Position numbers and translations under genes: made by a program
The notes under the pieces: model-generated
Told to the model about the DNA's origin: nothing
The model's database searches: none
Seen by the model: the letters and a program-made list of their open reading frames with translations, nothing else
Assembly (NCBI GenBank): GCA_021793035.1
Contig: JAJYTM010000001.1
Coordinates: 1-27,758, forward strand
DNA: 27,758 nucleotides
From: Candidatus Micrarchaeota archaeon
Lineage (GTDB): Archaea; Micrarchaeota; Micrarchaeia; Micrarchaeales; Micrarchaeaceae
Direction: 5' to 3'
Part shown: positions 20,107-25,517 of the stretch, piece after piece
How the letters are laid out: every line of letters begins with the position of its first letter
Numbering within the stretch: the stretch's first letter is position 1

Positions 20107-20218
20107 ATGGGTCGATGCAAAATCGCAATAAACGGTTTGCAGCGGAATCTCTTTATTCGTTGCCTAAAAAGTCTGTCTTGGAATGCGCGGTTCACTGCGT
20201 CACGTTCCAAAATGTGTG

Positions 20219-23200
20219 ATGGTTACTATGCTTCTAGCCTTCGAAACGGGGTTCATAGCCTTCTTTACGATGTTCATACCTGGGGTGCTTCTAGCATACG
20301 CATTGCTCAGGAAGACCGGGCTCCACACATTTGAGAAGCTCGTCATAGGGTTCATATTCGGCCTCATAGCGCCAGCAACGCTTACATGGATAGATGCATA
20401 TTTAATGCCGTACATCCACATATTCGCATTCTCATTGCCCCTATTCGAAGCCAACGCGCTAATAATAACAATAGTCGCTGCACTGATCTGCTGGAAGGAA
20501 GGCGTATTCAACGACCTCTCGCAGTATGTCAATGCAAAAGCAAAGCGCGCTGTAGAGGAGCGGCAGATAAAATCGGCAGAGCACGCCGAATCGATGGAGC
20601 TCTCTGAGCTAAGGTCAAACCTGAGGGGCTTCGAGAAGGCGCAGTCAATAATCAAGCAGCATGAAGATGAGGAGAGAGCGCTGAGACAGAAGCAGGAAGC
20701 AGAGCTGTCGCACACTTCCGGCCTTGGAGAAGAAGAAAGAGCAAGAATATCAGAGCTGCACAACAAGGCGCTAACGGACCTCATAGGCAAGCACGTCTCG
20801 GAGGAGAAGGGCATGCTCGCCGCGCTCAAGAGGGAGCAGGAGGAAATAGAGCTCAAGAGCAAGTCCGCCGAGGCATCGCCTCGCCATTCTACACCAACAT
20901 GGGTGTGGTGGGTGCTGCTGCTGTTCATGGTAATTACATTCGCTACGCGCATGCTCAGCGTTCCAATAACCCCCGCATTCTTCGAATTTGATCCGTATTT
21001 CGATATGCTCGCGACAGAGCATCTTCTGACTTTCGGATACCAGCCGCTGCTGTCGCATTCGGCGTGGCCAATATTGGCAAACGGCTCGGTCCTGAGGATG
21101 CAGCCCCTTATCCCATACCTGGAGGCTTATTGGTACTCTCTCGCCAACTATCTCGGCCCCCACTTCACCACGTTCAACACTACGCTTATGAGCTATGTTG
21201 GCGGTGTGTATCCGCCAATCACAGCCGCGCTTCTCGTGTTCGTAATATTCATGCTGCTTTACAATGAGTACGATCCTTATGTAGGCCTCATAGGCGCTTC
21301 TTTCGCCATGGCAATGCCGATACTGTTCACTACATTCGTATCCGGGGAGCAGCTCCTGGAGCCATGGGGCATATTCACGTTATTCTTCTTCTTTGCAGCG
21401 TACATGCTCGCAGTAAAGAACATGAAAAGCACGAGGCTTGCCATATTTGCAGGGATAGCGTTCGCATCTACCTTCTTGGGCGCCCACTACTATACGGTAG
21501 ATGCGGGGGTATTGACTCTGTACATCATACTGCAGGGAGTGATAAGCTACCTGAGAGGAGATCTAGGCAAGGATTTCTACAAGATGAATGCCATCGTGAT
21601 AATAGTCATCGCAATATTCCTTGCATTCTATTCGCCGTACCACGCGACGCTGAGCGGGCGCATACCAACAGTGCTTGGAATACCGATAACAGTGAGCGGC
21701 CCGCTCGCAGCATTGATACTCGTAGCTGTCATAGACTACCTGCCAAGGATTCTCAAGCAGTACCATGTGCTGTTCAATAGGATAGACTTGAAGATGAAAG
21801 TGCTGTGGCTCGTGGCAATAGCGATAATGGTGCTCGCGCTGCTCGCCGCTACGCCTCTGGGCACCCCAGTAAAAGGCTACCTTAGCCTGAGCACGAAGTT
21901 CACCACGCCATCGACTCCGCTTTTCATGACAGTGCAGGAGTTCGAGCCGACAGGGCTGGCGTACAACTTCGGCGCGGCTGGGCTCGGCATAATCGCATCT
22001 AGCATGTTCGGCGTGCCGCTTTTCGTATGGTTCCTATCGGCATTGGCGATAATACTCATATGCATCAGCATATACTACCGCAGAAGCAATACCGGCATAT
22101 TCTACCTTATGATTGCACTACCGCTAATGGTCGCTGCTTTCTCCGAGGTCAAGTACATACCGCACTTCGGCGTTGCATACATAATGCTCCTCGGCATAGT
22201 GATAGGAGAGGTAGCGGTGCTGGCAGGGAACAACTTCAAGCTCAAGCATGAGACAGACGAAAGCATATCGGCCCTGATAAAGCGGGCCTATACGGAGCAC
22301 AAGGACCTCATGTATTTCGTGTTCAGCATAGCGCTGTTCTTCTTCTCGCCGATAATTGCTATAATATACCTTCTATTCATACTTTTCACGCACAGGACCG
22401 AGAACAGGAACTATATGTGGGCGCTTCTCGGCTTCTTCTTGATCGTAGAAATTGCAGGGGCAGTGTTCGGGCACCCGATATACGGCGAGAGCTATTCGCT
22501 TATAGAAGCCGTGGGGTCAACGACCCTTTACTACGGCTCCCCATCTACTGCATGCTCATCCCTGAGCAGCGGCGGCAATTCTGTAGGGCTTGACCTATAC
22601 TGCAACGTCGTTCCGACATACTGGCTGTCGGCACTGTCATGGATGAAGAGCAACATAGGCCCGAACGGCCCTAGGGTCATGTCCTGGTGGGACTATGGCG
22701 ACTGGATAAACTGGTTCGGCCAGACGCCTACCGTAACGAGGGGCGACAACGCAGAGCCCACAGAGGACTTCGCAGTCGCAGCCAACTACGTGCTCGGCCC
22801 GAAGGACAATTACACCCCTGCTGTCATGGACAACTTCATGAACACCAATCAGACCAAGTACATAGTGTTTGACCAGGGCCTAATACAGAAATGGGGTGCC
22901 TTGGATTTCCTTGCATGCATACACATAAACGAGACATCAAGGGCATTTGCGATAGCCGAGGGCAAGCTGCAGAATCCTCCAGTTCCATACGCTCTGGGCA
23001 ACTCGCCATGCGAGCTGGCCCACGATCCGCAATACGTGCTTGTGCCATTGCCTACGCTAATACCAACCATAGAGAAGCCTACGATAAATGAATACTGCTC
23101 AATATCAAATTCGAGCACCCAGTATGCGTACTCCTATCTTGTGAACAACAATTCACTCACAAACCAGTCCGTCTGCATCGACCTGAATCCGACTAACAGC

Positions 23201-23581
23201 GGCGCATTCAAGGTCTATTACCAGAACGGCACCCAGATGAATGCGTACGTACAGGCAATCACCCAATCGCCCCTCGGGGAGACCGCGCTGGCAAACGGAG
23301 GCCCACTATACCTGGAGTACCTGATGGTGTACACGCCGAACGGCCCCAACGACACCATAACAAATGCTCCATCGGAGTTTTACTTGTCAAACTTCTACAA
23401 AGGGTTCTTCTTCGGGAAGCTGCCAGGGTTTACGCAGGTATATCCGGCAAACGCAACTGGCATAAACTTCATCAACAACACATATCCGATACGCATACTA
23501 GCGCTTGACAATTTCACCGGCCAGCTTCCACCGAAGGCATCAAAGCCCAGCTATGTTGTGAACAACTATACGTTCCCATGA
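20219..23581 (+). CDS. aglB: Oligosaccharyltransferase AglB (STT3) with an N-terminal membrane plus coiled-coil extension
   Basis: EFDPYF, MTVQEFEP (TIxE-like) and SWWDYGDWI (WWDYG) motifs; multi-TM core and sequon-rich extracellular C-terminal domain. Start uncertain (20219 or 20228). Confidence 0.93.
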   Translation: MVTMLLAFETGFIAFFTMFIPGVLLAYALLRKTGLHTFEKLVIGFIFGLIAPATLTWIDAYLMPYIHIFAFSLPLFEANALIITIVAALICWKEGVFNDLSQYVNAKAKRAVEERQIKSAEHAESMELSELRSNLRGFEKAQSIIKQHEDEERALRQKQEAELSHTSGLGEEERARISELHNKALTDLIGKHVSEEKGMLAALKREQEEIELKSKSAEASPRHSTPTWVWWVLLLFMVITFATRMLSVPITPAFFEFDPYFDMLATEHLLTFGYQPLLSHSAWPILANGSVLRMQPLIPYLEAYWYSLANYLGPHFTTFNTTLMSYVGGVYPPITAALLVFVIFMLLYNEYDPYVGLIGASFAMAMPILFTTFVSGEQLLEPWGIFTLFFFFAAYMLAVKNMKSTRLAIFAGIAFASTFLGAHYYTVDAGVLTLYIILQGVISYLRGDLGKDFYKMNAIVIIVIAIFLAFYSPYHATLSGRIPTVLGIPITVSGPLAALILVAVIDYLPRILKQYHVLFNRIDLKMKVLWLVAIAIMVLALLAATPLGTPVKGYLSLSTKFTTPSTPLFMTVQEFEPTGLAYNFGAAGLGIIASSMFGVPLFVWFLSALAIILICISIYYRRSNTGIFYLMIALPLMVAAFSEVKYIPHFGVAYIMLLGIVIGEVAVLAGNNFKLKHETDESISALIKRAYTEHKDLMYFVFSIALFFFSPIIAIIYLLFILFTHRTENRNYMWALLGFFLIVEIAGAVFGHPIYGESYSLIEAVGSTTLYYGSPSTACSSLSSGGNSVGLDLYCNVVPTYWLSALSWMKSNIGPNGPRVMSWWDYGDWINWFGQTPTVTRGDNAEPTEDFAVAANYVLGPKDNYTPAVMDNFMNTNQTKYIVFDQGLIQKWGALDFLACIHINETSRAFAIAEGKLQNPPVPYALGNSPCELAHDPQYVLVPLPTLIPTIEKPTINEYCSISNSSTQYAYSYLVNNNSLTNQSVCIDLNPTNSGAFKVYYQNGTQMNAYVQAITQSPLGETALANGGPLYLEYLMVYTPNGPNDTITNAPSEFYLSNFYKGFFFGKLPGFTQVYPANATGINFINNTYPIRILALDNFTGQLPPKASKPSYVVNNYTFP

Positions 23582-23589
23582 GCGTTAAA

Positions 23590-23608
23590 AAGAAAGAATT
23601 AAATTAAT
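23590..23608 (+). promoter_or_regulatory. BRE/TATA-like promoter of tRNA-Ile
   Basis: Purine-rich AAGAAAGAA followed by TTAAATTAAT, about 35-45 nt upstream of the mature tRNA 5' end. Confidence 0.5.
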
Positions 23609-23643
23609 GTTTGGTGTCAATCTTACTGCTCAATTCTGATAGT

Positions 23644-23718
23644 GGGCTTGTAGCTCAGCCTGGTCAGAGCGGCGGTCTTATAAGCCGTAGGTCGAGAGTT
23701 CAAATCTCTCCAGGCCCA
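23644..23718 (+). tRNA. tRNA-Ile with anticodon UAU (TAT at 23679-23681), intronless
   Basis: GGGCTTG TA GCTC AGCCTGGTCA GAGC G GCGGT CT TAT AA GCCGT AGGTC GAGAG TTCAAAT CTCTC CAGGCCC A. Complete cloverleaf, C4-G69 and A73 as in archaeal tRNA-Ile; CCA not encoded. Confidence 0.95.
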
Positions 23719-23822
23719 CTAATATATTGTGGTTATATAAACACCAGCAAGGAAAATAACGGCAGTAGTATTGTGCTCAAACTCGCAGAGGCCAGCCAAT
23801 CTGCGTGCATTTGCCCAAACTG

Positions 23823-24548
23823 CTACAGGTTTTCAAGCTTTTGGGCCATCGCCTTTAAGTCGTCGACTTTCTTTGAAATTTCCCCCGCTTTCTCGTTTAA
23901 GAATGCGACGCACTGCCCGGTATTTGGGTATTTCTGGTCACTCGGGTATTTTTTGGCTTCTGGAGAAACTGCAACCAGGGGCTTTTTTACATCAAACGGA
24001 AAGGTGTCTGCCGTTTTGCCTGATGGGCCTATAAGGGCTTTGAGAACACCCGAACCAAGCCGGTTTCCGAAAGATATGCCCAGCTCTCCAAATATTAGGC
24101 TCTCAGCGCCAAAGATTGATTTTTCCTGCCGTACCCTCATTAAGAGTTCAATGCTATGTATCTTGGTTCTGTGCTGGGATTCCTCGGCGAGCGCCTTTCC
24201 TTTGTCCAGCCCCGCAGCATCCGCACGCCCCAGGGCATCCTTGGCGTAGCCTATGACTTTCTTTGCATAGTCATAGTCGTAGACCATCTCAAAAATTGGC
24301 CATGCAGGCGTTTTGACGAACATTACTTTCCTTTCTTTTTGCATCACGAACAGCCGCAGGTCTGTAACTATAAATTGGTCCTCAATCCTTGTTCGCGAGT
24401 TCCCCCCTAAAGACGTACTGGCAGAGGCAAAAGCAACGTAGGAAACCTTGTCCGAAATGAACATTACTTTCTCCCCAGGCTCCAAGAAATCCTCGTAAGT
24501 CTTGCCGCCTTTATAGTCGCTCAGCCCGTATTCTTTCATAACTCCCAT
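23823..24548 (-). CDS. Hypothetical protein, possibly with a PH-like N-terminal domain
   Basis: 241 aa ORF. FLEPGEKVMF...FIVTDLRLFVMQK resembles the L-x-x-G-E...l-T-d-x-R-l pattern of prokaryotic PH domains (recognised by eye only). Upstream TATTTAAATA. Confidence 0.7.
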   Translation of the reverse strand: MGVMKEYGLSDYKGGKTYEDFLEPGEKVMFISDKVSYVAFASASTSLGGNSRTRIEDQFIVTDLRLFVMQKERKVMFVKTPAWPIFEMVYDYDYAKKVIGYAKDALGRADAAGLDKGKALAEESQHRTKIHSIELLMRVRQEKSIFGAESLIFGELGISFGNRLGSGVLKALIGPSGKTADTFPFDVKKPLVAVSPEAKKYPSDQKYPNTGQCVAFLNEKAGEISKKVDDLKAMAQKLENL

Positions 24549-24732
24549 TCAACCAATTTTGGTATATGGAGCTAATATTTAAATAATTATCGCTCGTTGT
24601 AGGAGTAGAAATTTGACAATAGCCATGGGGTGAATGCAGGCATACAAAACAAATATCAAGTTTCTAGTAGGGGAGTTTAATGGGTTGCTATGCTCATAAT
24701 TTGACTGCCATTTGGGATGGGGGTTGGGTTCG

Positions 24733-25032
24733 ATGAATAGAGCAGAAAAAGTCATTCTTGTAAAGTTCATTGCAGGAGCGGCGATTATCGGGGTTCTTTC
24801 GATTTTTGTGCATAGCTTAATATGGCTTATGCCTATTTACCTGGTTGGATGGTTTTCTTGGTTAATGCTGAAGGCAGTAGCGGCATTTGTCAGCTTCTTT
24901 TTTGAGAAAATTGGACTCGGAGATAGTACTATCCTCAGGACAATCGCAGTAGTGATTATTTGGGGAATCATTGAATTAATAGTGGTGATCGCCTTGGCCT
25001 TGACCCTGCCAGCGTTGCTCATGCCACATTAG
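24733..25032 (+). CDS. Small hypothetical membrane protein (about 3 TM)
   Basis: 99 aa, strongly hydrophobic; ATT/TTT-rich codons unlike flanking core genes. Confidence 0.65.
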   Translation: MNRAEKVILVKFIAGAAIIGVLSIFVHSLIWLMPIYLVGWFSWLMLKAVAAFVSFFFEKIGLGDSTILRTIAVVIIWGIIELIVVIALALTLPALLMPH

Positions 25033-25112
25033 GTGCGGCGCGTGTTGCAGCAGACCAGAAAAGAATTTAAATATGTGCTTCAATATGGCTTATATCAGGA
25101 AGGTGGAATTAG

Positions 25113-25352
25113 ATGGCATCTTTGGGGGTTTGGGTCGGGATAATATACGAGATTTTCATAGTGGCACTGATGATAGGCGCTGGGATATTCATGCTCACCT
25201 TTGGCGGAACATGGAGCTGGATGGGTGCCGGTATTCTGGCGCTCGGCATCATAGTCGGCTATTTCACATACCGAAGCTACCACAAAGCCTTCGCACAGGG
25301 CCGCGAAGTGAAAGCCAAGCTCGGCAATATCAAAAAACCGTGGGAGCAGTGA
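25113..25352 (+). CDS. Small hypothetical membrane protein (2 TM plus basic tail)
   Basis: 79 aa with two hydrophobic helices followed by YRSYHKAFAQGREVKAKLG; preceded by GGAAGGTGGA. Confidence 0.65.
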   Translation: MASLGVWVGIIYEIFIVALMIGAGIFMLTFGGTWSWMGAGILALGIIVGYFTYRSYHKAFAQGREVKAKLGNIKKPWEQ

Positions 25353-25517
25353 TCGGCACTCCGATACGCTTCGGCTTTGGTGCTTTGAACTCGGGCACCA
25401 TCTTAGGTCAATTGTTGAAACGAACCTTGAAACTGTGAGGCACCCCGCAGAATTTATTCATAGTAAGGTGTTAGTAATATATTGTGGGGTGTTCAGTAGC
25501 ATCACCTGGTAGATGAC

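Follow-up and report, generated by a model that had tools for sequence, protein, structure and literature searches.

How does an archaeon read AUA as isoleucine with a tRNA whose anticodon is encoded as UAU, and what keeps the U at position 34 (U34) from reading AUG as well? The question is raised by a tRNA-Ile(UAU) gene in a stretch of 27,758 nucleotides from a Candidatus Micrarchaeota archaeon, the whole of which is called the window here. The first-pass annotation had presented the gene as a rare, possibly new exception through which the lineage may have replaced or supplemented the TiaS (agmatidine) system. The high frequency of AUA, the top codon, and the lack of all known wobble-U base modifiers in the window's order make AUG avoidance by U34 an unusually sharp question. 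Considering the evidence below, we hold it very likely that this single-copy tRNA decodes AUA as isoleucine without TiaS, with a U34 that is most likely base-unmodified or only ribose-methylated.

The sole tRNA that ARAGORN reported in the window is tRNA-Ile(tat) at 23644-23719. The Rfam model RF00005 spans 23644-23718 over its full length (positions 1-71) and scored 71 bits against a cut-off of 29 bits (E 7e-14), and the 75-nt tRNA folded into a standard cloverleaf at -27.3 kcal/mol, so the intact cloverleaf and the anticodon loop CU-UAU-AA of the first-pass annotation were confirmed. The 7-nt anticodon loop, CTTATAA, has U33 and A37. The anticodon arm contains a G27.U43 pair, and its stem is closed by a U31.G39 wobble pair (23676 with 23684); T31 was present in 116/116 of the tRNA-Ile(UAU) genes matched in the survey described below, whereas the tRNA-Ile(GAU) of relatives has G31-C39. 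The Ile-type identity elements claimed for the gene received indirect support, as the acceptor stem, T arm and A73 match those of tRNA-Ile(GAU) from a same-genus genome and from G100, a closed relative of 928,770 bp in the same family as the window's genome. Overall identity to the relatives' tRNA-Ile(GAU) is ~84%, including 31 identical bases at the 3' end, while the acceptor stem of the elongator tRNA-Met differs from that of tRNA-Ile(UAU).

Table 1. Features at and next to the tRNA-Ile(UAU) locus of the window.
Feature	Position	Strand	Description or basis
AglB/STT3-like gene, upstream neighbour	20183..23581	+	1132 aa; ORF list, weak STT3 core match
Candidate archaeal TATA box, AT-rich (AATTAAATTAAT)	23598..23609	+	Read from sequence
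tRNA-Ile(UAU) gene	23644..23718	+	75 nt, intron-less, discriminator A at 23718, no encoded CCA
Anticodon arm GCGGT/CTTATAA/GCCGT	23672..23688	+	Read from sequence, fold
Anticodon TAT (U34 A35 U36)	23679..23681	+	ARAGORN, fold

The distribution of the gene was surveyed in 151 Micrarchaeota genomes from 20 families, 133 of which are at least 90% complete. The 75-nt query matched 146 of the 151 genomes. Among the best 30 loci in relatives, TAT was found in 30/30; 12 loci were 100% identical, and the stems of the others (acceptor, anticodon and T) differed by compensatory changes. When we searched with a strict pattern for the 5' half of the tRNA through the UAU anticodon, exactly one match per genome was found in 116 of the 151 genomes and in 13 of the 20 families, and the reversed pattern, used as a control, gave 0 matches. 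An apparent restriction of the gene to two families was rejected as an artefact of a pattern ending in CTTATAA (55/151), which is blocked by an intron after nt 37; leaving out the final A, and so allowing for an intron directly after nt 37, raised the count from 55/151 to 116/151. The 35 unmatched genomes may have a tRNA with a divergent D arm or with additional introns. Based on its presence in at least 116 genomes and in 13 families, the gene is a trait inherited phylum-wide and not a rare exception. Co-occurrence with TiaS loss, for which the first-pass annotation had suggested a survey, extends over the same sample, with the UAU 5' half in 116/151 and TiaS in 0/151.

The trait was published in 2011. 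Fujishima et al. (2011, NAR 39:9695; PMC3239211) described tRNA-Ile(UAU) in ARMAN-2, -4 and -5, without tRNA-Ile(CAU) and without TiaS homologues, and their splicing substrate was the ARMAN-2 pre-tRNA-Ile(UAU), whose intron at 37/38 is 25 nt long. ARMAN-2 (Candidatus Micrarchaeum acidiphilum), ARMAN-4 and ARMAN-5 belong to the same phylum as the window's genome, and ARMAN-2 probably to the same family. They share with the window's lineage the UAU anticodon, the absence of TiaS and of tRNA-Ile(CAU), and the proposed role of the tRNA as AUA decoder. In contrast with ARMAN-2, the window's gene has no intron, and the ARMAN paper covered three genomes without discussion of U34 enzymes or codon usage. 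In a survey of 167 genomes (PMC6000648), tRNA-Ile(UAU) was listed for just two archaea, Nanoarchaeum equitans and Candidatus Korarchaeum cryptofilum, and was regarded as a species-specific gain in each. Both resemble the window's lineage in being archaea with a genomic UAU anticodon for AUA, but they belong to other phyla, and their species-specific gains differ from the phylum-wide inheritance in Micrarchaeota. As such, the view of the gene as a rare, possibly new exception does not hold. The tRNA-Ile(UAU) gene is ordinary for Micrarchaeota, where TiaS-independent AUA decoding is already known; it is an example of a known alternative to agmatidine, and this alternative is the rule for the whole phylum.

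To compare wobble-U modification enzymes, the genomes were divided into the window's order (families f1 and f2 together with the window's genome, G000; 71 genomes), which is probably Micrarchaeales, and the rest of the phylum (80 genomes). In profile (HMM) searches, which could still miss very divergent enzymes, Elp3 (TIGR01211) was found in 0/71 genomes of the order versus 78/80 elsewhere, Cbf5 (TruB_N, PF01509) likewise in 0/71 and 78/80, and the TIGR00269 thiolase domain in 0/71 and 63/80. We take TIGR00269 to be the domain that marks PP-loop thiolases of the NcsA/TtuA type. TruA/Pus1 (PF01416) was found in 0/5 genomes, including the window's own, and in 13 controls. The single PP-loop (PF01171) match in G100 was considered as NcsA or TilS and rejected, since the protein is ThiI. 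The enzyme searches proposed with the first-pass annotation thus returned neither TiaS in the 151 genomes nor Elp3 in the 71 of the order. These profiles point to an order-wide loss of wobble-U and H/ACA modification machinery. A literature search on Elp3 and Cbf5 in Micrarchaeota or Micrarchaeum, and on TiaS in DPANN, returned nothing on enzyme losses. These losses and the intron pattern described below are the only parts of this analysis that may be new, and we put them forward as a hypothesis.

Given that Elp3 (xm5U), an NcsA/TtuA-type thiolase (s2U), and Cbf5 and TruA/Pus1 (pseudouridine) were not found, U34 of the window's tRNA is most likely base-unmodified. Since TiaS and tRNA-Ile2(CAU) were not found in the phylum, gene content and codon data show that U34 reads AUA through ordinary Watson-Crick pairing to the third A of the codon. 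On the same data, AUU and AUC are read by tRNA-Ile(GAU), and AUG by the initiator and one elongator tRNA-Met(CAU). Because AUA is the top codon, the single-copy tRNA-Ile(UAU) is the major and not a minor isoleucine decoder. With a base-unmodified U34, AUG would be kept out because an unmodified U.G wobble is weak and because tRNA-Met(CAU) competes, and features of the tRNA, such as the conserved U31.G39 pair, or of the ribosome may form a further barrier.

The closest functional precedent is bacterial. In Mycoplasma mobile, U34 of tRNA-Ile2(UAU) is unmodified, with both IleRS and the ribosome adapted to the UAU anticodon (Taniguchi et al. 2013, PMC3575796); the avoidance of AUG was explained by the ribosome and by competition with tRNA-Met (PMC3575796). 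As in the window's lineage, there is no C34-modifying enzyme. For an order that lacks known wobble-U enzymes, M. mobile is the best functional parallel. However, M. mobile is bacterial and its IleRS is of the bacterial type; for the Arg865 determinant of that enzyme, no counterpart is defined in IleRS of the archaeal type. While the state of U34 was shown directly in M. mobile, in the window's order it is the gene content alone that suggests a U34 which is most likely base-unmodified, or at most ribose-methylated, as in M. mobile.

The alternative that survives best is that U34 or U36 does carry a modification, made by some other enzyme, which keeps AUG from being read. Possible modifiers are box C/D-guided Um34 (fibrillarin), pseudouridine placed in the anticodon by Pus7/TruD, or a further enzyme. 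Two closed relatives, G100 and G042, have fibrillarin, and TruD/Pus7 is present in the window's genome (C61:5637-6869) and in relatives; as a lead only, the loop U34-A35-U36-A37-A38 is similar, with regard to position 36, to the context UNUAR that Pus7 targets. The rank of AUA as top codon also counts for a modified U34 or U36, since selection for accuracy should be strong. On the other hand, we know of no enzyme acting on U34 of an archaeal tRNA-Ile(UAU), and the three usual systems for wobble-U modification and guided pseudouridylation (Elp3, Cbf5 and TIGR00269) are those found in none of the 71 genomes of the order. Furthermore, the UAU anticodon of M. mobile works unmodified (PMC3575796). 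We therefore regard such a modification as a serious but minority possibility, and a base-unmodified or only ribose-methylated U34 as the preferred reading.

The intron at 37/38 follows the same division of the phylum. Counted over the genomes matched by the 5'-half patterns, tRNA-Ile(UAU) is intron-less in 37/65 genomes of the window's order but in 0/51 of the rest, where all 51 matched genes are interrupted directly after nt 37. Elongator tRNA-Met is intron-less in 0/55 and 2/28, respectively, so that its 37/38 intron is kept in 81 of 83 genomes. Presence and absence of the tRNA-Ile(UAU) intron are mixed inside several genera of the order, which indicates that the change happened more than once, and the fixed intron of elongator tRNA-Met in the order (55/55) argues against general intron shedding there. 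The background frequency of introns is low in three genomes from outside the order, in which Rfam tRNA matches longer than about 90 nt numbered 7/45, 6-8/36 and 7-10/35. The part of the phylum with Elp3, Cbf5 and the thiolase thus has a fixed tRNA-Ile(UAU) intron, and in the order where these three were not found the intron is labile.

Eukaryotes offer a comparison for such an intron. Their cytosolic tRNA-Ile(UAU) has a pseudoU-A-pseudoU anticodon, whose pseudouridines are reportedly made by Pus1 on the intron-containing precursor (Szweykowska-Kulinska 1994; Motorin 1998). Eukaryotic and Micrarchaeota genes have in common the use of UAU for AUA, and the 37/38 intron is shared by all matched Micrarchaeota genes from the rest of the phylum. 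The same logic does not extend to the window's gene, which is intron-less and for which TruA/Pus1 was found in none of five genomes, nor to the 37 of 65 matched genes of the order that are without the intron. We speculate that the intron serves an intron-dependent modification of the anticodon in other Micrarchaeota, and that the window's order reads its commonest codon with a bare U34. If so, this would be an archaeal parallel to the eukaryotic pseudoU-A-pseudoU logic; elsewhere in the phylum, the intron-dependent modification would keep an Elp3-type modification from promoting AUG misreading, and the tRNA-Ile(UAU) intron would have become dispensable only in the window's order, which would have lost every known wobble-U route. 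Because the association between intron and enzymes goes back to a single evolutionary transition, we consider this proposal rather unlikely as it stands. In families f6, f8 and f11 (G043, G030, G078, G050 and G134), tRNA-Ile(UAU) is also interrupted in the T arm, and ARAGORN missed four of these five genes. The intron of the G050 gene holds a partial copy of the anticodon arm (GGTCTTATAC).

Whether the UAU tRNA replaced the TiaS system or supplements it depends on the enzyme and on the number of CAU tRNAs. The TiaS domains PF08489 (FLD) and PF22641 (catalytic TCKD) were found in 0/151 Micrarchaeota genomes, including the window's own, a same-genus genome that is 92% complete and several single-contig genomes, whereas both were found in 4/4 controls (Methanocaldococcus, Haloferax, Sulfolobus and Methanosarcina). 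The window's genome comprises 662 kb in 94 contigs and is 74% complete; the initiator is its one assembled CAU tRNA, and neither tRNA-Ile(GAU) nor elongator tRNA-Met was assembled, so the absences rest on relatives. We therefore took the tRNA census from the closed G100, combining ARAGORN, Rfam matches and hand parsing of intron-bearing genes. G100 has about 45 tRNAs, including tRNA-Ile(UAU) and an intron-bearing tRNA-Ile(GAU). Two of them are CAU tRNAs, namely the initiator, which has A1-U72 and an anticodon stem with three G-C pairs, and one elongator, which is interrupted by a 42-nt intron. No third was found in this closed genome; the count of CAU tRNAs that the first-pass annotation had proposed thus gave no Ile2. 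Across the phylum, an elongator-type CAU 5' half was matched in 83/151 genomes and never twice in one. Multiple and non-canonical introns make tRNA detection in the phylum imperfect, so a hidden CAU tRNA is conceivable. ARAGORN alone misses or mislabels many intron-bearing tRNAs, with Ile-GAU and elongator Met both given as 'Ser(aga)' and Thr as 'Ser'.

A supplementary role would require a TiaS and tRNA-Ile2(CAU) system in the unassembled quarter of the window's genome. The incomplete assembly and its lone CAU tRNA, the initiator, leave room for such a system. However, both TiaS domains were found in none of the 151 genomes, the CAU tRNAs of closed G100 number only two, and a second elongator-type CAU 5' half was seen in no genome, which makes a merely supplementary tRNA very improbable. 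A complete TiaS plus tRNA-Ile2(CAU) system, which the first-pass annotation had named as the finding that would speak against its proposal, was not seen in any of the 151 genomes. Taken together, the lack of TiaS and of a third CAU tRNA indicates that the UAU tRNA has replaced the agmatidine system, and of the two options originally offered, replacement is the one that stands. In G100, ARAGORN labels Ile-GAU, Met, Thr-UGU and Thr-CGU wrongly as Ser. The elongator tRNA-Met of this genome, with its 42-nt intron, lies 14 nt from tRNA-Gly(UCC) (367376-367580), and two copies of tRNA-Gln(CUG) lie 1.3 kb apart (411556-413015).

In long ORFs of the window's genome, ATA accounts for 10,200 of 13,837 isoleucine codons (74%) and for 5.84% of all codons, which makes it the top codon. 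When orthologs of the window's genome and G100 were compared, ATT and ATC positions faced ATA most often (27-28%) and ATG rarely (about 4%). In uS3, 23 of 24 isoleucine codons are ATA, and these positions align mainly with I, V and L in uS3 of Thermococcales ribosomes of known structure; one of about 22 positions faces M. These comparisons indicate that AUA is used and behaves as isoleucine in the window's genome. In principle, an anticodon with U34 could pair with AUG as well as with AUA, and AUA might have taken on another meaning (Met, for instance, as in mitochondria), with a tRNA that is not an Ile tRNA; but between orthologs ATA is replaced much more often by ATT and ATC than by ATG, the uS3 positions face mainly I, V and L, and the tRNA body is like tRNA-Ile(GAU) and unlike elongator tRNA-Met, so that reassignment is scarcely credible. 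At 48.6% GC, the window's genome uses AAG for 72% of Lys, CAG for 80% of Gln, AGG for 55% of Arg and TTC for 73% of Phe codons. Most split boxes favour G-ending codons, and Ile favours ATA.

The reality of the gene was assessed with metagenome contigs. In contigs from three independent DNA studies (X4, X6 and X14; mine tailings and sediment), no alternative letter was found at 23679-23681, and the C at 23679 that the first-pass annotation had named as a sign of assembly error was absent. The only variants within the tRNA were 23673 C>T and 23687 G>A, which are the partners of a single anticodon-stem pair, so that C28-G42 becomes U-A in co-occurring strains. Assembly or sequencing error and chance match were excluded by these concordant independent contigs and by the compensatory stem changes in relatives, and the sequence comparisons argue that the gene is real and under purifying selection. 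An erroneous T at the first anticodon position or a decaying pseudogene has a negligible chance, given the agreement of independent contigs with a compensatory pair as sole change, the identical sequence in 12 other genomes, the compensatory stem changes across 30 loci and the full Rfam score of 71 bits. One mine-tailings contig of run X4 carries 34 extra letters exactly after nt 37 (23682/23683), which indicates that intron-bearing and intron-less versions of the gene co-occur in one sample. In the sole RNA run, metatranscriptome X20, only a relative's tRNA was found, inside short contigs with flanks, and such contigs are no proof of transcription.

The tRNA begins 62 nt downstream of the AglB-like gene (Table 1). 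In a flank alignment, the 3' end of this gene adjoins the tRNA in the same-genus genome too, and a shorter conserved stretch of the AglB end lies beside the tRNA in two other genera (G100 and G023). The flanks diverge in relatives while the tRNA itself stays 97-100% identical, and conservation is lost directly 3' of the tRNA, even in comparison with the same-genus genome. A search across the window for a repeat of the tRNA 3' end (att site) found none, so the variable region at 23719-25450 is without a visible att duplication. On the 5' side, the AT-rich box is located some 36-46 nt before the first nucleotide of the tRNA; as a candidate TATA box, it would imply a short 5' leader. Comparable AT-rich boxes are found upstream of the orthologous tRNA gene in relatives.
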